NCBI GenBank assembly: GCA_017466695.1
Contig: JAFTTR010000002.1
Location: forward strand, 70,837 to 134,836
DNA from: Alphaproteobacteria bacterium
GTDB taxonomy: Bacteria > Pseudomonadota > Alphaproteobacteria > CAAHEQ01 > UBA3637
Direction of reading: 5' to 3'
Length of the DNA stretch: 64,000 nucleotides
The notes under the pieces were generated by a model. That model was not told where the DNA came from, did no database searches, and saw nothing but the letters and a program-made list of their open reading frames with translations. A program made the position numbers and the translations under genes. Shown in pieces: positions 20,132-28,600 of the stretch. Position 1 is the stretch's first letter; every line of letters starts with the position of its first letter.

Positions 20132-21001
20132 CTATCTTTCTAATTTTAAATGATAATAAGGAGAATTTTTAAGCAAAGGACGAATATGCGTGTTGAATAG
20201 CACTTTTTCTTCCACAGATAAAAACAAAATTTCACTTTCCTTTGCCTCGTCATTATTTTTAATCACTCCATTGCCTTTTAATGTTTTCATAAAATGAAAC
20301 CAAACAGGCTGCGAATGGATATTATTTTTCATTTTTTTATTAAAAACAACATATTCAAAATATTTTTTTTGTTGAAAATGAGAGAAATTTTTTCTTTGAA
20401 TAGCGTAACTATCCCCATTCTCACCGTTAAATGGTCCTAATTTATATTTCACAAGAACACCATTATGTGAAAATGTGTTGTATCCCTTTAAAGAAAAATG
20501 CTTATTATCATTTTCCGCTTTTTTCATCATCTCGACAAATTCTTTTAACCTATTTGTTAAATAAACCTGATCAGCATCAATTTTCACAACCCATTCGTTT
20601 GGTTTAAAAAATTGCAATCCAAATTGATTATACGCTGCTAATGTATTCTCATAAGGAACAGATCCTTTATATCTCTTATCATGAGAAGGAATAACAGCAT
20701 GAGGATATTCATGAATTTCACAACTGGGCCTTTTTTCACACCACGCATTCATAAAAGCAACAGAGCCATCATCTTTTTCATTTGAATGAATAATAACAAT
20801 CCTATCAAAAACGCCGTCAATTGAATTTAAACAGGCCTCAATGGTGTTTATTTCATTCTTAACACGTAAATAGGCTGATGCAGGAAATGCTTCTGTTCCC
20901 TGCGCATTTATAGAGTTAAAAAATATATAAATTACAACAAATAATAACAACTTCTTAAAGTTTTGCTTTAACACAAAATACCCCCACACTTTTTTAGACA
21001 A
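20132..21001 (-). CDS. Putative glycosyltransferase (GT-A-like, DxD motif) with N-terminal membrane anchor/signal
   Basis: Hydrophobic N-terminus LLLFVVIYIFFNSINAQG; beta-strand-like RIVIIHSNEKDDGS followed by VVKIDADQVY (DxD). Very AT-rich; lies directly next to the tRNA-Met pseudo-copy array. Confidence 0.45.
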   Translation of the reverse strand: MSKKVWGYFVLKQNFKKLLLFVVIYIFFNSINAQGTEAFPASAYLRVKNEINTIEACLNSIDGVFDRIVIIHSNEKDDGSVAFMNAWCEKRPSCEIHEYPHAVIPSHDKRYKGSVPYENTLAAYNQFGLQFFKPNEWVVKIDADQVYLTNRLKEFVEMMKKAENDNKHFSLKGYNTFSHNGVLVKYKLGPFNGENGDSYAIQRKNFSHFQQKKYFEYVVFNKKMKNNIHSQPVWFHFMKTLKGNGVIKNNDEAKESEILFLSVEEKVLFNTHIRPLLKNSPYYHLKLER

Positions 21002-21021: not shown

Positions 21022-21714
21022 TTATGCCGTATATAACCCCTCTTTAATCAACCCCTCTTCGACACGAATTTGCTTATCCATCTGCAATGCTAAATCAGGG
21101 TTATGTGTTGCAATCAATGCCGATAATTTTGTTTCTTTCACTAAATTTAAAAGCGTTTGAAACACACCACTTGCCGTACTAGGGTCCAAATTTCCAGTTG
21201 GCTCATCTGCTAATAAAATAGCTGGGTTGTTTGCCAATGCTCTTGCAATGGCAACACGTTGTTGCTCACCCCCTGAAAGTTGCCCTGAGCGATGTTTTAA
21301 TCGGTGTTTTAATCCCACTAACTCCAGCAATTCTTCAGCTCTTTTTCTAGCAAGTTTTGGCTTTTTCCCTTCAATTAGTTGGGGAAGCATCACATTTTCA
21401 AGCGCATTAAAATCTGGCAATAACAAATGGGATTGATAAACAAAACCAATGGCCTTTCGTCTCAAAAGAGTGCGTTCTTTATCTAAGGCATGAGATACAT
21501 CAACGCCATTTACAAAAATTTCACCACCCGTAGGCGTATCCAACAGCCCTGCAATATGAAGGAGTGTTGATTTTCCAGAACCAGAAGGACCAACAAGAGC
21601 CACAATTTCCCCTTTTTGAAGTGTAAAGTTAATATCTTTTAAAACCTCAAGTTTCGTTTCTTTATCGCCATAAAAACGGCTCACATGTTTTAATTCTAAA
21701 CAAGGATTATTCAT
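21022..21714 (-). CDS. lolD: Lipoprotein-releasing system ATP-binding protein
   Basis: [18 protein letters not shown]; [32 protein letters not shown]; paired and overlapping with the LolC/E permease gene. Confidence 0.85.
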
Positions 21715-22951
21715 ATCTTAATGCCTCCACAGGGTCAGTTTTGCTTGCTTTATAAGAAGGATAAAGTGTTGCAAGTAAGGATAAAGCTAAACTCATCACA
21801 ACAACAAGTGTCACTTCTGTCATATCCACTTTTGCTGGTAGGTGGGAAAGGAAATAAATTTCAGCCGAAAAAAGCTCTCTTCCTGATAATCCTTCTAAAA
21901 ACGTTTTTATCGCATCAATATTTTCACAAAACAACAAACCAAGAGCAAAACCTGCGAATGTTCCAACAACACCAACGGTTAATCCAGACATTAAGAAAAT
22001 CCGTTGAATAGCACCACGGCTCATCCCCATTGTACGTAAAACTGCAATATCTTTTGTCTTATCTTGCACAAGCATAATCAGCCCTGAAATCATATTAAAA
22101 GCAGCCACAATAATAATGAGCGTTAAAATTAAAAACATAACATTTCGCTCAACTTCAATGGCATTAAAAAAGGCTTGATTTGTATATCTCCAATCATGGA
22201 TTGTAGCATCTCTTCCAATTTTTGAAAATGCATTTTCTGCAATTTTTTCATAATCGGCGCCTTTGTTTGTAAATACTTCAAGATGAGAAACTTTATCCCC
22301 TGTCATGAAGAATTTTTTCGCCTCGTCAAGGGGCATGAAAAGAAAATTGCCGTCATATTCACTCATACCACTATCAAAAGTTCCTAAAACCGTATATGCC
22401 TTCATTTTAGGAATTGTGCCAAATGCTGTTATATTTCCTTTAGGTGAAACCAATGATACTTGATCTCCAGCTCTTACCCCTAACCTTCTGGCCAAACGAT
22501 AACCTAAAATAATTTGGCTATCTAAAAACTCATTGATATCTATGCCTTTATATTTTCCACCTAATAAAGGCCTTTTTTTAAAATCCTCAAGACTCATCCC
22601 TCTAACCATAACCCCAGCTGAGGCCATATCAGAGGAAAGCATAACCTGCCCATCCACCACAGGTACAACATGGGTAATATCTTTAATGGATTGCATTGTT
22701 TTAGCCTTTTCTTCGCCATCAGACAAATATGGACCATAAGAGGGATAAACTCCTAATTGCCCATTAATACCAAGAACACGACTTAAAAGCTCTTCTTTAA
22801 ACCCATTCATCACACTCATTACAATAATAAGCGTTGCAACACCTAACATAATCCCTAAAAATGAAAACCCTGCAATAACAGAGACAAAGCCGGTTCTTTT
22901 TCTAGACTTTAAGTAGCGAAAAGATAACATTCTTTCTGTTTTTGAAAACAT
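21707..22951 (-). CDS. lolC: Lipoprotein-releasing system permease LolC/LolE (FtsX family)
   Basis: 414 aa; N-terminal TM, periplasmic domain, C-terminal FtsX TM bundle; upstream of lolD with an 8-nt overlap. Confidence 0.8.
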   Translation of the reverse strand: MFSKTERMLSFRYLKSRKRTGFVSVIAGFSFLGIMLGVATLIIVMSVMNGFKEELLSRVLGINGQLGVYPSYGPYLSDGEEKAKTMQSIKDITHVVPVVDGQVMLSSDMASAGVMVRGMSLEDFKKRPLLGGKYKGIDINEFLDSQIILGYRLARRLGVRAGDQVSLVSPKGNITAFGTIPKMKAYTVLGTFDSGMSEYDGNFLFMPLDEAKKFFMTGDKVSHLEVFTNKGADYEKIAENAFSKIGRDATIHDWRYTNQAFFNAIEVERNVMFLILTLIIIVAAFNMISGLIMLVQDKTKDIAVLRTMGMSRGAIQRIFLMSGLTVGVVGTFAGFALGLLFCENIDAIKTFLEGLSGRELFSAEIYFLSHLPAKVDMTEVTLVVVMSLALSLLATLYPSYKASKTDPVEALRYE

Positions 22952-23019
22952 ATTTTAACCCCTTTAAAAAAAACTAAGTTAGAAAGTACAAAACTTTTTC
23001 TTAAAAATCAAGTTTTAAA

Positions 23020-23595
23020 TTAATCTCTTAAATGTGTTCTCAAATCTGTATACAAACGTAACACTTTATTTTCTGGAACATGGGACACCCTCTTTTGTGG
23101 AGTACAACTTTCAATCAAAAAACGCCATGTATTAATCTTTAAATCTGCTAACAAATAATCTAAACGTTCCTTCATCATCCCCCCTTCTCTTATAATATAT
23201 CCCCTTAACATGTCACTTTGTGTATCAGATAGATATTTTTTAATCTGCTCATCACTCGCATAAGGATAAGGTCGATTTAAGATTTTTTTTTGCTTTTGAG
23301 GAAAATATTCTTGCCATTCGATTGGAAAATCAACATGTCGGTATTCTTTTAAAAAATCAGTCAGTGTACGTGTCAGAAAATAATGCAACCTTAAAACTTC
23401 AGGTTTTTGCGCAAAAACAGAGGGCCTTAAAGCTCCTTCAGCACGGGCCGGATATGCGTATAAAAATGTCATTTTAACATTATAGACACGCTTATCTTTA
23501 CAAACCATATCGAATAAAAAAGGCAATTTAAGTTGATAATATTCAACTTTATGTATTCGTTTTGGCACACCGACCTCCTTTAGGATATATATCAC
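23020..23595 (-). CDS. Hypothetical protein (191 aa)
   Basis: No motif recognised; basic, AT-rich; divergent from the transglutaminase-like gene. Confidence 0.4.
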   Translation of the reverse strand: MIYILKEVGVPKRIHKVEYYQLKLPFLFDMVCKDKRVYNVKMTFLYAYPARAEGALRPSVFAQKPEVLRLHYFLTRTLTDFLKEYRHVDFPIEWQEYFPQKQKKILNRPYPYASDEQIKKYLSDTQSDMLRGYIIREGGMMKERLDYLLADLKINTWRFLIESCTPQKRVSHVPENKVLRLYTDLRTHLRD

Positions 23596-23656
23596 ATTTT
23601 CAGCACACTCTCAATAAAAAGTTTACTTTTTTTTGACTTATGTGATATAATAAAGT

Positions 23657-24346
23657 ATGCGTTATATATTGTTATTTATTTGTATCATCTTCTTTGGAAC
23701 AACCCCTGCTTTTTCAAAAGCATCTTATGGGAGAGCTGATAGCCGTGCTTATCGTGTCCCAACACAATACAATGATAATTTAGATGAACTTGTAGTCTAT
23801 TTGATTAAACCCTTCGAAAAAAACGAAGAACTCAAAGCAAGAGTTCTTTTTGCATGGATTGTTTATCACATCCAATATGATGATTACGAATTTAAAACAC
23901 AGTATGAATGGTCAAGGGATAAAAAAGACATCACATGTAAAAAGGGTCTTTGTATGCGTCAAACACCTCAAGATACATTTAAAATCAGAAGTGGTGTCTG
24001 CAGACACTTTGCAGATCTTTTTCATTACATGGCCTCCAAAGCAGGCTTAAAGTCTGAAATTATTTTAGGCATCTCACAAGGGCAAGGCCACGCTTGGAAT
24101 GCTGTTTTCGTTAATAAAAAATGGCATCTTTTGGATACCACATGGGCTGCGCAATCGAAAAATGCTTTCATTGGAATAAAAAACGACAGAGCTTATAAAA
24201 GAGCAAAAGAAATCAGAGAAAGAAAAGCAAAATCCAATCGAATTAAAGGATCAAAAAAAATTAATGAACAATGGTTTTTCCCAAATCCCAAAAAATTCTA
24301 TCAAACACATAAGCCTCATGATGAAAAATGGTCTCTTATAAAATAA
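23657..24346 (+). CDS. Secreted transglutaminase-like cysteine peptidase superfamily protein
   Basis: Signal peptide MRYILLFICIIFFGTTPAFS; Cys-His-Asp triad context GVCRHFADLF ... GHAWNAVF ... HLLDTTW (Transglut_core-like). Confidence 0.6.
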   Translation: MRYILLFICIIFFGTTPAFSKASYGRADSRAYRVPTQYNDNLDELVVYLIKPFEKNEELKARVLFAWIVYHIQYDDYEFKTQYEWSRDKKDITCKKGLCMRQTPQDTFKIRSGVCRHFADLFHYMASKAGLKSEIILGISQGQGHAWNAVFVNKKWHLLDTTWAAQSKNAFIGIKNDRAYKRAKEIRERKAKSNRIKGSKKINEQWFFPNPKKFYQTHKPHDEKWSLIK

Positions 24347-24490
24347 AAGACTGCCTCTCTTTTTTGTTAACTATATACACCATATAGACTTTGAAACATA
24401 ATTGTCATAAAAAAAAGGGAAGTTTTTTCTTGACAGGCAAAATATTTTCATTTAAAATCTTGTTAGTTTTTTTAATGAAAGGACAAAAAA

Positions 24491-24772
24491 ATGATTAAAT
24501 CTGAACTCGTTACAAAATTAGCAGAACAAACAAACTTAACAAAAACAGATGCTGAAAACATCGTCACAACTGTTTTTAGAGAAATCACAAAAGCTCTTGT
24601 TAAAGGCAATCGTGTTGAATTGCGTGGCTTTGGTGTTTTATCTGTTAGAGAACGTAAACCTCGTGTTGGTCGCAACCCAAAAACAGGTGAAAAAGTTGAT
24701 GTTGCTTCAAAGAAAGTTCCTTTCTTCAAAGCAGGTAAATCAATTAACGAAGCTCTTAATAAAAAGAAATAG
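24491..24772 (+). CDS. ihfB: Integration host factor beta subunit (HU/IHF family)
   Basis: MIKSELVTKLAEQ...RVELRGFGVLSVRERKPRVGRNPKTGEKV; the GRNPKTGE arm is typical of IHF-beta; 93 aa. Confidence 0.85.
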   Translation: MIKSELVTKLAEQTNLTKTDAENIVTTVFREITKALVKGNRVELRGFGVLSVRERKPRVGRNPKTGEKVDVASKKVPFFKAGKSINEALNKKK

Positions 24773-24779
24773 GATTTAA

Positions 24780-25628
24780 ATGAACTGGCTCAGTCGTCTT
24801 ACACGTCCAACTGTTAAAAAAGCAGCTACGCAAAAAGATATTCCAAACAATTATTGGGATCGTTGTCCTGATTGTGGGGCCATGCTCTTTCATGCTGAAA
24901 TTGAAAAGGCTGATTTTGTATGTCCTTATTGCGATCATCACTTTCGTTTACCAATCTTAAAACGTCTTGAAATGCTTTTTGACAGAGGCGAATATACGCT
25001 GATTCAACTGCCCAAAGTGAAAGAGGACCCACTTAAATTTGCAGATCTTGAAAAATACACAGATAGACTAAAAAAAGCCAGAAAAAAAACAAAGCATGAA
25101 GATGCTATCGTTGTTGCACATGGGCACATTGGTGGGCACGCTAGTGTTGTTGGTGTTTTTGACTTCTCTTTCATGGGTGGTTCGATGGGAACTGCTGTGG
25201 GGGAAGCTATTATTACAGCATCCCAACTTGCATTATTACAAGAAGCAGCACTCATTCTTGTTCCTGCTTCTGGTGGTGCTCGTATGCAAGAAGGAATGCT
25301 TTCTTTGATGCAAATGGCCAGAACAACAATCGCTGTTAAAAAGTTAAAGGCAAAACGTCTTCCTTACATTACCATTTTATCCGATCCAACAATGGGTGGG
25401 GTAACAGCCTCTTTTGCAATGTTGGGGGACGTTGCCTTTGCTGAACCAGGGGCAGCCATTGGTTTTGCTGGCAAACGTGTGATTGAGCAAATTGTTCGTG
25501 AAAAGTTACCTTCAAACTTTCAACAAGCCAGCTACTTGTTAGAGCATGGCATGATTGATCAAGTCGTGCACAGAAAAGAGCTTAAAAATGCAATTTCAAA
25601 TATCCTAAATTTGTTGCACAAACATTAA
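24780..25628 (+). CDS. accD: Acetyl-CoA carboxylase carboxyltransferase beta subunit
   Basis: N-terminal zinc ribbon CPDCGAMLF...CPYCDHHFRL; CoA-carboxylase fold motifs (FSFMGGSMG; PYITILSDPTMGG). Confidence 0.9.
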   Translation: MNWLSRLTRPTVKKAATQKDIPNNYWDRCPDCGAMLFHAEIEKADFVCPYCDHHFRLPILKRLEMLFDRGEYTLIQLPKVKEDPLKFADLEKYTDRLKKARKKTKHEDAIVVAHGHIGGHASVVGVFDFSFMGGSMGTAVGEAIITASQLALLQEAALILVPASGGARMQEGMLSLMQMARTTIAVKKLKAKRLPYITILSDPTMGGVTASFAMLGDVAFAEPGAAIGFAGKRVIEQIVREKLPSNFQQASYLLEHGMIDQVVHRKELKNAISNILNLLHKH

Positions 25629-25693: not shown

Positions 25694-26707
25694 ATGAAAA
25701 AAGTGCTATTTTTTAATGGGGATAATATTTTATTAGATTATCTACATACACATCCCTCCCCTCATTTTGAACCAGTTGTTTTTAAAGAATCTTTAAACCA
25801 TATTCCTCTATCGTTATTAGAAGAATATAAAGATATTGAAGCTCTTTCAATCTTTGTGCATTCTGAATCCTTAAGTACCGAACGATTAGATTATTTTAAA
25901 AATTTAAAAATCATTGCAACCAGATCAACAGGATTTAACCACATTGATTTAAAATATTGCAAAAAAAGGAATATCAGCGTTGTCAATGTCCCAAGATATG
26001 GCGAATCCACCGTTGCCGAATTTGCCTTTGGAATGTTATTAAACTTAACAAGACACATTATTCAAGGTAGAAATGGCATGGCACACAACCATGTGGACAT
26101 TCCAAGTTATATGGGCTTTGATTTAATGGGCAAAACATTAGGCGTGGTAGGAACGGGCTCCATTGGTCAGCATATGATACAAATCGCAAAAGGGTTTCAA
26201 ATGAATGTGGTTGCTTTTGATTTATACCCCAAAAAAGAATTAAAAGACCTTTATGTTAAAACCTTGGATGAATTGTATAAAAAAAGTGATATCATCTCTT
26301 TGCACGTTCCTTCAACAAAAGAAAATTATCATTTATTAGATGAAAAGGCCTTTAAGAAAATGAAAAAAGGCGTTATCATTATCAACACAGCAAGAGGAGA
26401 CTTAATTGATACACAAGCTCTTTATGGAGCTTTAAAAACAGATCAAGTAGGAGGTGCCGGACTGGATGTGCTTGAAAATGAAGATTTCCTCATTCATGAT
26501 GATATTGAAACGAGTAACCTATTTAAAGATAAGGACTTTTTGTTAGATTCAGCCTTAAATTTAAAGCTCTTACAATTTAAAAATGTGATTGCAACACCCC
26601 ACATTGCGTTTAATTCTATTGACGCTGTTAATCGAATTAACCAAACAACGTGTGAAAATATGGTTGCCTTTTTTGAGGGTTCACCTCAAAATCTGGTTTC
26701 AAAATAA
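25694..26707 (+). CDS. D-isomer-specific 2-hydroxyacid dehydrogenase family protein (NAD-binding)
   Basis: Rossmann GVVGTGSIGQ; catalytic region ...NTARGDLID...TPHIAFNS. Confidence 0.75.
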   Translation: MKKVLFFNGDNILLDYLHTHPSPHFEPVVFKESLNHIPLSLLEEYKDIEALSIFVHSESLSTERLDYFKNLKIIATRSTGFNHIDLKYCKKRNISVVNVPRYGESTVAEFAFGMLLNLTRHIIQGRNGMAHNHVDIPSYMGFDLMGKTLGVVGTGSIGQHMIQIAKGFQMNVVAFDLYPKKELKDLYVKTLDELYKKSDIISLHVPSTKENYHLLDEKAFKKMKKGVIIINTARGDLIDTQALYGALKTDQVGGAGLDVLENEDFLIHDDIETSNLFKDKDFLLDSALNLKLLQFKNVIATPHIAFNSIDAVNRINQTTCENMVAFFEGSPQNLVSK

Positions 26708-26806
26708 TCTAAAATATCGCCCCTTTCATTGGAGAGGGGCTTTTTAAATTTATTTTATACTTACTGACGTTAAGAAGATTGGATATTTTGTATCCTTAGA
26801 TTGTAT

Positions 26807-27025
26807 TTATTCTCTTGATTTTAAAAGATTTTTAATTTTTTCAAATAAAAGTGTTGCTAAATATCCAAATAAAACAGATAAAACAACAGCAAAAACAACC
26901 ATCACATCTCCCTTTTCGTTCAAAGGCGCATAAAGTGTAATCAATTTTCTGGCTAAAAGAAGAGCCATAGCAGATAAAAGATACGCATTTAAAAGATATT
27001 TTTTCCCCATTGAAATAAAATGCAA
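26807..27025 (-). CDS. Small hypothetical membrane protein (72 aa)
   Basis: Two hydrophobic segments; no homology recognised. Confidence 0.3.
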   Translation of the reverse strand: MHFISMGKKYLLNAYLLSAMALLLARKLITLYAPLNEKGDVMVVFAVVLSVLFGYLATLLFEKIKNLLKSRE

Positions 27026-27152
27026 AAAAGCCCTTTTTCTTGATGATATTTTTTTTACATAAAAAAATGATTCAATGGTCTTTTAACTGGTTTTCTAGTT
27101 ATAAAAAAACACCCTTGCTGATTAAGCAAGGGTGTCTTTTTAATCAAGTTTT

Positions 27153-27953
27153 TTAAGAATTAATCAAATCTAAGAAGGTTTGCTTTAATGGCATATTGCA
27201 AGTAATCATTTCTTGCGCATTCACAATATCCATTAATTCACGTTCACCTTTGAAGTTAGAAATATACCCCCCAGCTTCTTTGATTAACAAAGAACCAACG
27301 GCAATATCCCACAATTTAAACCGTGTTGCAATATCAGCATCAAATTGCCCAGCAGCAACACTTGCCAAAGCCATGGTTGTGCTTCCATTATAACGCACAG
27401 AAGCCACTTCTTTAATCACTTTGTCAATAACTTGACGATTTCTTGTCGAGTTATACCCATTACTACCAATCAATGAGCAACTCAAATCGTTACGCCCAGA
27501 CACACGCAAACGCACATTGCCTGTTGGTGTCATTAAAAAGCTACCACGACCCTTTTCAGCATAATACAATTCATTTGTAACTGGATTGAATGAAACGCCT
27601 GCTAAAACATCATCACCTTCCATCACTGCAACTGAAATTGAAAAACAAGGAAGCGCATGTAAAAAGTTTGTTGTCCCATCAATTGGATCAATAATCCAAT
27701 AATAAGAACACCCATTTTTAGGTTCAATCCGTTCACTTTCTTCCGTAATAAAACCAAAATCTGGCTTATCAGTGCTTAACTGCTCAATCAATGTTTTTTC
27801 GGCCATCATATCAGCGTTGGAAACAAAATCCCCAGGACCTTTACGGGAAACTTGTAAACTTGAAACTTCACCAAAGTCACGGAGCATTCTGCGCCCTGCT
27901 TTTCTGACAGCACGTACCATAATTGTCATCAAAGGTGACAAAGAATCAAGCAT
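27153..27953 (-). CDS. suhB: Inositol monophosphatase family protein (SuhB-like)
   Basis: WIIDPIDGTTNFLHALP and WDIAVG motifs. Start trimmed to MLDSLSPLM, because the ORF-track start (28037) would overlap the efp stop. Confidence 0.8.
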   Translation of the reverse strand: MLDSLSPLMTIMVRAVRKAGRRMLRDFGEVSSLQVSRKGPGDFVSNADMMAEKTLIEQLSTDKPDFGFITEESERIEPKNGCSYYWIIDPIDGTTNFLHALPCFSISVAVMEGDDVLAGVSFNPVTNELYYAEKGRGSFLMTPTGNVRLRVSGRNDLSCSLIGSNGYNSTRNRQVIDKVIKEVASVRYNGSTTMALASVAAGQFDADIATRFKLWDIAVGSLLIKEAGGYISNFKGERELMDIVNAQEMITCNMPLKQTFLDLINS

Positions 27954-28036
27954 AATTTCTTCCCTTGTTTTGGGGCGTTCTCTGCGTTCTGCCTGCTTAC
28001 GTGGTGTGATACGTCTTTTTTCAGTAATGGTTGCCA

Positions 28037-28600
28037 TTATTTTGCCCTTTCAACATAGGAACAATCAGCTGTTGCAACAACAATCTTTTCCCCTGTTGTA
28101 ACAAAAGGTGGAATGCTTGTTCTTAATCCATTATCTAAAATAGCTGGCTTATAAGAAGTTGTAACTGTTTGGCCTTTCAAATAAGGTTCTGTTTCAACAA
28201 CTTCACAAACAACGTGTAAAGGCAATTCAATACCCACAACTTTACCTTCAATTGTGTTAGCCACAACTTCCATATTATCTTGCAAGAAAGCAACGCCCTC
28301 ACCCATCAAATCGGCTGGGATTTCAATTTGATCATATGTTTCTTTATTCATAAAATAAAGGGTATCTCCTTCACGATAAAGGTATTGGCAATCAATATTT
28401 TCGGATGTTAATTTTTCAATGGTGTCTTCCGTTCTGAAACGTTCATTTGTTTTGTTCCCACTGGCTAAGTCACGCATTTCAACTTGCATGAAAGCACCAC
28501 CTTTACCAGGCTTTGTTACTTGTGTTTTCATCACTGTCCATTGTTTTCCATTATGTTCAATAATCCAACCGGGTCTAATATTGTTTGCTTGTGTTTTCAT
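28037..28600 (-). CDS. efp: Elongation factor P
   Basis: MKTQANNIRPGWIIEHNGKQWTVMKTQVTKPGKGGAFMQVEMRDLASG (the KPGKGGA loop containing the modified Lys); 187 aa. Confidence 0.9.
   Translation of the reverse strand: MKTQANNIRPGWIIEHNGKQWTVMKTQVTKPGKGGAFMQVEMRDLASGNKTNERFRTEDTIEKLTSENIDCQYLYREGDTLYFMNKETYDQIEIPADLMGEGVAFLQDNMEVVANTIEGKVVGIELPLHVVCEVVETEPYLKGQTVTTSYKPAILDNGLRTSIPPFVTTGEKIVVATADCSYVERAK

Follow-up and report, generated by a model that had tools for sequence, protein, structure and literature searches.

A predicted exported transglutaminase-like cysteine hydrolase and its divergent orphan neighbor, probably held together by inherited synteny in uncultured ruminant-gut Alphaproteobacteria

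Within the transglutaminase (TGase)-like cysteine hydrolases, LapG sets a mechanistic precedent: It is a protease of the periplasm that trims a surface protein. For the KY (kyphoscoliosis peptidase)-like branch of the superfamily, we know of no member with a demonstrated substrate, and the literature searched yielded nothing on the function of TglA from Streptococcus pyogenes, whose structure (9crn) shares the core fold. Here we analyze a TGase-like enzyme of KY-like type together with its divergently transcribed neighbor, a basic protein that we call the orphan. Both are encoded in a 64,000-nt stretch of a metagenome-assembled genome (MAG) of an uncultured alphaproteobacterium (GenBank GCA_017466695.1, contig JAFTTR010000002.1, positions 70,837–134,836; hereafter the window). 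The TGase-like coding sequence occupies 23657–24346 on the plus strand (229 aa) and that of the orphan 23020–23568 on the minus strand (182 aa). The open reading frame (ORF) listing places both frames where an earlier sequence-only reading of this DNA had put them, and exact matches at NCBI identify the products as MBQ8250385.1 (locus tag IJY92_00555) and MBQ8250384.1 (IJY92_00550), each labeled "hypothetical protein." The reading we favor, with a probability of roughly 0.6, is that these are two separate genes, neighbors in one clade of uncultured ruminant-gut Alphaproteobacteria through inherited synteny and without a functional module between them. The divergent functional pair posed by the sequence-only reading is not supported.

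Divergent orphan–TGase adjacency was observed in about 15 loci, all of which belong to one closely related clade (the window, L001/L012, L002, L003, L009/L010, L011, L013–L017, L021, and L022–L024). The block cgtA–lolD–lolC–orphan–TGase–HU–accD is whole in every pair-keeping contig long enough to show it. At its full extent of at least 10 kb, the syntenic block runs efp–suhB–…–2-Hacid_dh–accD–HU–TGase and then, divergently, orphan–lolC–lolD–cgtA–hydrolase–polA. LolC and AccD of the syntenic loci are 87–95% and 91–99% identical to those of the window, and relatives of the locus come from MAGs of sheep rectum, yak rectum, and similar sources.

Outside the syntenic clade the two families part: Five TGase loci, in four distinct contexts, have no orphan gene, and at two orphan loci the TGase is missing. 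In L006 and L007, the TGase gene (50–52% identity) lies upstream of DUF502 and ATP synthase genes, with rplU–rpmA on its other side in L006; in L008 (52% identity), it follows a histidine kinase gene and an AtpR-like gene and precedes HU–accD; and in L004 and L005 (38% identity), it follows a small NrdD-like ORF. The orphan is absent from all five. Its homolog P0052 (38% identity) is flanked in L019 by a pirin gene on one side and a gene for a class II aminoacyl-tRNA synthetase on the other, with no TGase or lol gene within the flanks sequenced (6 kb on each side). A second homolog, P0053 (33% identity), follows a BOF/response-regulator cluster in L018, and no TGase or lol gene was found there in the 3 kb upstream or before the contig ends 184 bp downstream. 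The synthetase gene beside P0052 (L019, 6993–8360) encodes what we take, from an unchecked reading of its N-terminus, to be a dimeric-type glycyl-tRNA synthetase, a type unusual for Alphaproteobacteria; judged by this synthetase, the range of the orphan family may extend past the window's lineage. The sequence-only reading had suggested an immunity, chaperone, or regulatory partner for the enzyme, and the co-occurrence of the two families speaks against this, with adjacency confined to the syntenic block and the families unlinked in L004–L008, L018, and L019. Because TGase loci occur without the orphan, orphan loci occur without the TGase, and the pair appears only within one syntenic block, the two genes are best regarded as independent.

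Promoter-like elements in and around the pair are consistent with separate expression. The two start codons lie 88 bp apart, and the shared 60-bp promoter region of the earlier account is to be corrected to that length. A candidate TGase promoter, TTTACT–18 nt–(TGa)TATAAT (23622–23651, plus strand), matches the consensus at 10 of 12 positions and carries the TG extension; its −10 box ends 5 nt upstream of the ATG, with no Shine–Dalgarno (SD) sequence. This spacing of −10 box (extended TGnTAnAAT), 5 nt, and ATG is kept in L006 and in 10 syntenic loci (the window, L003, L009, and L011–L017), whereas the more distant TGase loci L004 and L008 have an SD sequence instead. On this pattern, the TGase mRNA is probably leaderless. 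The candidate orphan promoter and ribosome-binding site (23574–23614, minus strand) are a consensus match only and consist of TTGAGA (23614–23609), 17 nt, (TGa)TATATA (23591–23586), and AAGGAGG (23580–23574); the L011 equivalent of the promoter reads TTGTGG–17 nt–(TGa)TACAAT. The −35 boxes of the two genes stand back to back within the conserved block CAATAAAAAGTTTAC, separated by 7 bp.

A third candidate promoter, again a consensus match only, lies in the spacer between the orphan and lolC (TTGATT–17 nt–TACTTT; 22983–23011, minus strand). Aligned spacers from 10 loci keep it as TTGATT or TTGCAT, 17 nt, TAnTTT, and lolC therefore probably has a promoter of its own. This element bears on the proposal that the orphan is the first gene of a lolC–lolD–cgtA transcription unit, serving lipoprotein sorting or envelope biogenesis, with the TGase nearby only incidentally. 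Such a unit would account for the orphan's position directly upstream of lolC in the same orientation, with a spacer of 28–150 bp in all syntenic loci, and no strong intrinsic terminator was found between the two genes. The conserved promoter-like element nevertheless interrupts the proposed unit, no lol gene lies near the distant orphans of L018 and L019, and the orphan lacks a signal peptide or transmembrane segment and evolves about fivefold faster than lolC. We regard the proposal as very unlikely, and the first two of these points led us to reject the orphan as a Lol component.

Rates of divergence point in the same direction. Compared with the closest relative, L011, the ratio of nonsynonymous to synonymous divergence (dN/dS) is 0.06 for the orphan and 0.09 for the TGase; both ORFs are therefore real genes rather than chance frames. 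Beyond this closest pair, dS is saturated (>1), and dN ratios alone were used: Relative to the more distant subclade, dN is about 0.5 for the orphan and about 0.39 for the TGase, compared with 0.10 for LolC and 0.06 for AccD. In a neighborhood that is otherwise well conserved, three genes evolve fast: those for the orphan, the TGase, and the CgtA-like glycosyltransferase. Identities across the syntenic loci range over 43–90% for the orphan, 52–80% for the TGase, and 48–67% for the glycosyltransferase, and over 79–99% for LolC, LolD, HU, and AccD. Fast evolution of the orphan and the TGase fits envelope-exposed or dispensable functions and does not in itself demonstrate a partnership. Pairwise identities of the orphan within the syntenic clade correlate with those of the TGase (r = 0.89) about as they do with those of LolC (r = 0.91) and AccD (r = 0.90). 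This lack of excess co-divergence (0.89 vs. 0.91), together with the separate conserved promoter-like elements of the TGase, the orphan, and lolC, further argues for the independence of the pair.

Several observations weigh against independence, and most of them would be expected of a functional two-gene module in which the orphan served as a cytoplasmic regulator, export chaperone, or pre-export inhibitor of the TGase, co-regulated from a shared divergent promoter region. The divergent arrangement persists, with a spacer of 88–99 bp, in all of the roughly 15 loci and across sub-lineages in which both proteins are at 43–57% identity (the orphan down to 43%). The back-to-back −35 boxes lie in a conserved block, so that co-regulation within the clade is possible, and the two genes evolve 4–8 times faster than their neighbors, as interacting or host-facing proteins may. 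Both families are also represented in a single sample, ERR13991793 (the TGase in L004 at GC 0.33 and the orphan in L019 at GC 0.34), and may co-exist, unlinked, in one genome. The TGase genes of L004, L005, and L007 lie close to a contig end, leaving one flank unseen, and the moderate-confidence structure model of the orphan may hide a fold relationship.

Set against these points, the pair-keeping loci amount to a single syntenic clade, and the genes are never adjacent in the five TGase and two orphan loci outside it. The TGase subfamily is also far more widespread than the orphan family (41 vs. ~12 clusters), family scans of the orphan detected neither an HTH nor another regulatory domain, and divergence is uncorrelated beyond phylogeny: The window TGase is 79% identical to its counterpart in L011 and 80% in L012, whereas the orphan is 90% and 63% identical, respectively. 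We consider the module unlikely. The orphan as an immunity protein, chaperone, or regulator of the TGase was rejected on the loss of linkage outside the clade and on the lack of an export signal, a DNA-binding domain, or excess co-divergence.

The plus-strand product is a member of the TGase-like cysteine hydrolase superfamily, of KY/DUF553 type, with a predicted thiol activity. The sequence-only reading had identified it as a TGase-like cysteine enzyme with a signal peptide from the motifs GVCRHFA, GHAWNAV, and LLDTTW, and the Pfam search that it proposed bears this out: Transglut_core (PF01841) matches residues 79–160 with 40.1 bits (cut-off 23; E = 5e-10), and DUF553 (PF04473) scores 35 bits (cut-off 20.5; E = 1.2e-8). 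The alignment and the structure model assign the catalytic nucleophile to Cys115 in GVCRHFA (codon 23999–24001, plus strand), with His145 in GHAWNAV (24089–24091) and Asp160 in LLDTTW (24134–24136), in canonical order and at canonical secondary-structure positions. Across an alignment of 32 homologs, Asp160 is invariant and Cys115 and His145 nearly so; the triad is kept in 31 of the 32, the exception being the degenerate P0034, which lacks the Cys and the His. A profile built from these homologs matches the solved structure 9crn at 3.4e-18, pairing GvCrdyadLF with SVCNGYAQAF, HAWNAV with HAWNAV, and DvtW with DVTW.

The AlphaFold2 (AF2) model of the enzyme has a mean predicted local distance difference test (pLDDT) score of 90.7 and a predicted template modeling (pTM) score of 0.87. 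Cys115 starts the helix 115–128, His145 lies in the strand 143–152, and Asp160 directly follows the strand 155–159; with the Cys at a helix N-terminus and the His and Asp on the next β-hairpin, the layout is canonical for TGase-like enzymes. Foldseek searches of the PDB with this model returned TGase-like and papain-like relatives exclusively, with probability 1.0 for 3isr, 9crn, 4xz7, the ciliary protein FAP246, TgpA (6g4h), PNGase, and LapG. Model score, triad, fold topology, and structural match thus agree, and the protein fits every testable defining feature of the superfamily.

Beyond the triad, F207, H218, P220, W225, and L227 are invariant from bacterial to Branchiostoma KY-like sequences. 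A Lys/Arg-rich helical insertion at about residues 165–200 (IKNDRAYKRAKEIRERKAKSNRIKGSKK; 24149–24256, plus strand; alignment columns 330–370), modeled as a helix at 177–191, is carried by a low-GC bacterial TGase subfamily and is missing in Bacteroidota-type and KY-like homologs. A CxxxxC pair, Cys94/Cys99, occurs in the closest relatives only and is likewise missing in Bacteroidota and KY-like homologs. The mature protein is strongly basic (pI 9.7). On one ENA contig (103817 bp), a TGase of the window's 90% cluster was called as two pieces, P0067 (130 aa) and P0069 (61 aa), which could reflect a frameshift, a pseudogene, or an assembly error.

The enzyme would be exported. A Sec (SPase I) signal peptide is predicted at residues 1–21 (23657–23719, plus strand; read from the sequence), in which MR and a hydrophobic run lead into PAFS, with cleavage after AFS and before KA (leader MRYILLFICIIFFGTTPAFS, followed by KA). 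A hydrophobic N-terminal leader is present in nearly all aligned homologs, and in the AF2 model it forms a helix (2–13) with a low-confidence linker (15–21). A lipoprotein was considered and rejected: The single early cysteine, Cys9, is unconserved and outside any lipobox, and no usable lipobox is present. Because lolC and lolD adjoin the pair, the organism is a diderm, and the default destination of a protein with a predicted Sec leader in a diderm envelope is the periplasm.

This destination bears directly on whether the TGase might be a secreted toxin or a host-directed effector, with the orphan as its immunity protein. The lineage is host-associated (ruminant-gut MAGs), and the enzyme combines a predicted signal peptide and fast evolution with the papain-like fold of a thiol hydrolase, a fold that certain effectors employ. 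In a diderm, however, a protein exported by Sec gets no farther than the periplasm; the neighborhood contains neither secretion-system genes nor Rhs/PAAR or other domains for delivery, and PADLOC returned zero matches. Immunity to a periplasmic enzyme would need a signal peptide or a lipobox, both of which the orphan lacks. The pair is also divergent, whereas effector–immunity pairs are usually co-transcribed, and the linkage of the two genes is lost outside the syntenic clade. We judge this the least probable of the explanations weighed here. From the secreted effector of the sequence-only reading, predicted Sec export survives, but the effector role exceeds the evidence, since the leader predicts export to the periplasm only.

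On the opposite strand, the length of the orphan had been given as 191 aa, counted from the first GTG in frame (23595). A later GTG, at 23568, is preceded at a distance of five bases by a perfect AAGGAGG, the majority of full-length homologs start at the corresponding position, and the NCBI record has 182 aa; on these grounds GTG 23568 is almost certainly the true start. The protein is basic (pI 9.5) and without a hydrophobic segment, and the earlier description of a basic neighbor with no recognizable family stands. Its N-terminus (MPKRIHKVEYYQLK...) is hydrophilic, and no hydrophobic leader or lipobox occurs in any of the 13 homologs aligned. Family scans found no HTH or other DNA-binding domain. 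Over 13 sequences with identity down to 31%, 26 columns are invariant, including Cys23, Cys155, Arg60, Arg135, and an F-P-x-E-W core preceded by a nearly invariant Asp (DFPxEW). The two invariant cysteines and the acidic/aromatic motif suggest a putative ligand- or partner-binding site.

The orphan is a very small lineage-restricted family that matches no described family. A word-indexed search found 7 clusters, an exhaustive profile search found 5 genuine clusters among 1.84 billion representatives, and a broader profile extended the family to 11. GTDB holds it in 7 species genomes, and the JGI metagenomes hold it on one contig (L020), from the same clade as the window. A sixth match of the exhaustive search, the 709-aa P0054, was discarded as spurious, being a repeat protein that matches over a 20-residue stretch only. 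PRS2_N (PF23900) was also rejected as a chance match, at 16–18 bits against a cut-off of 27, seen in four near-identical members only and not in the window protein. No match to the orphan was found in Pfam, NCBIfam, PHROGs, PADLOC, or a PDB sequence-profile search.

A structure model built from 8 sequences (pLDDT 73.8) arranges the orphan as a β-hairpin, helices, and a second β-hairpin and, together with its composition, is consistent with a cytoplasmic, soluble, basic α/β protein. Comparison with known structures produced no fold match of significance. The orphan comes closest in shape to SPFH/FliL, EF-Ts core, eS1, and T-fold domains, which indicate no known family; like the orphan model, all are two-layer α/β arrangements with helices packed on an antiparallel sheet. 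Among these, the T-fold (tunneling fold) recurs in weak structural matches to PTPS/QueD (3d7j, 2g64, 2a0s, 2dj6, 7v0f, and 3qn0) and GTP cyclohydrolase I (7ala). The order of predicted elements (ββ, helices, ββ) is compatible with it, and a pair of cysteines and a glutamate are invariant in the family. A highly diverged T-fold protein, acting as an oligomeric enzyme or as a binder of a purine- or pterin-like ligand, is on this evidence a slim possibility. Slimmer still is the idea that the orphan founds an undescribed fold or family of narrow, gut-associated low-GC bacteria and became a dedicated cytoplasmic TGase partner (a pre-export inhibitor or chaperone, or a promoter sensor) in a host- or envelope-directed module.

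Under the favored reading of two independent genes, the TGase would be translated from its leaderless mRNA, exported by Sec, and cleaved of its ~21-residue signal peptide. It would then act in the periplasm or cell envelope through Cys115–His145–Asp160, as a thiol-dependent hydrolase (protease, amidase, or deamidase) or as a transamidase. The Lys/Arg-rich helix and the high pI suggest that it may dock onto an anionic envelope component, and the Cys94/Cys99 pair would fit an oxidizing compartment. The orphan, neither a partner of the TGase nor a part of the Lol machinery, would be a stand-alone accessory protein that binds a small ligand, a nucleic acid, or a protein.

The surrounding DNA is ordinary chromosome (window GC 36%), with no second copy of the orphan or the TGase elsewhere in the window and zero RNA families in an Rfam scan of the intergenic regions. 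On the orphan's side, the minus strand carries genes for a LolC/E-type permease (21707–22951), LolD (21022–21714), and the CgtA-like glycosyltransferase (20132–21001). The last of these, downstream of lolD, is a tandem duplicate in L013 (7553–9236) and L014 (7552–9238), the two copies having 56–62% identity to the window protein; in L011, the match to it is limited to a fragment (residues 4–106). On the TGase's side, the plus strand carries genes for an HU/IHF-type protein (24491–24772), AccD (24780–25628), and a D-2-hydroxyacid dehydrogenase (25694–26707), beyond which suhB lies on the minus strand (27153–28037). A near-consensus promoter-like site upstream of the HU/IHF-type gene (TTGACA–17 nt–TAAAAT, 24430–24458, 11 of 12 positions) makes that gene probably independent of read-through from the TGase. 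The slot between the dehydrogenase gene and suhB (26708–27152) varies among relatives. Its sole content in the window is a 72-aa hydrophobic ORF (26807–27025, minus strand); L001 (1135–2689) and L003 (1176–2729) carry a NUDIX hydrolase gene and a family-2 glycosyltransferase gene there, and L021 (1219–1728) carries a gene for a 169-aa ankyrin-repeat protein.

For annotation, MBQ8250385.1 can be relabeled as a transglutaminase-like (KY/DUF553) cysteine hydrolase with predicted export, and MBQ8250384.1 keeps the corrected start and 182 aa. Little is gained beyond this: The enzyme joins a known superfamily as an ordinary new member. The orphan adds one more narrow, rapidly evolving family of uncultured gut Alphaproteobacteria with nothing else demonstrably unusual, and it would gain interest only through a structure or an interaction that revealed something new.

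Comparison with the described systems places the enzyme more precisely. LapG-type BTLCP enzymes (4fgo, 4u65) belong to the same superfamily and are likewise small periplasmic Cys-His-Asp enzymes with a Sec leader. Their structures match the window TGase weakly (E = 1e-3 to 4e-2), the LapG family model gives no Pfam match at E up to 1, and no lapD- or lapA-like gene lies in the neighborhood; by sequence and by context, the window TGase is not a LapG-type BTLCP. The core fold is shared with a putative cysteine protease of Cytophaga hutchinsonii (3isr), with TglA (9crn), and with the periplasmic domain of Pseudomonas aeruginosa TgpA (6g4h), at Foldseek probability 1.0 and E-values of 3e-6 to 9e-4; identities are 18–20%, and TM-scores are modest (0.37–0.49 on the query). 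The proteins behind these structures are larger or membrane-anchored, unlike the window TGase, whereas the TGase domain of TgpA is periplasmic, as is the predicted location of the window enzyme.

The KY-like branch shares the triad order and a C-terminal WF...P..F..TH.P.D.KW.L motif, seen in Bacteroidota and in Branchiostoma KY-like sequences, with a Branchiostoma KY-like protein reaching 34% identity over 88% of the query. In contrast to these homologs, the window TGase is much shorter, with a single domain, a predicted signal peptide, and no C-terminal extension. It also carries the Lys/Arg-rich insertion, accompanied in its closest relatives by the CxxxxC loop, and distant homologs have neither. 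A small single-domain member of the KY-like type with predicted export could be a handy biochemical model for this branch.

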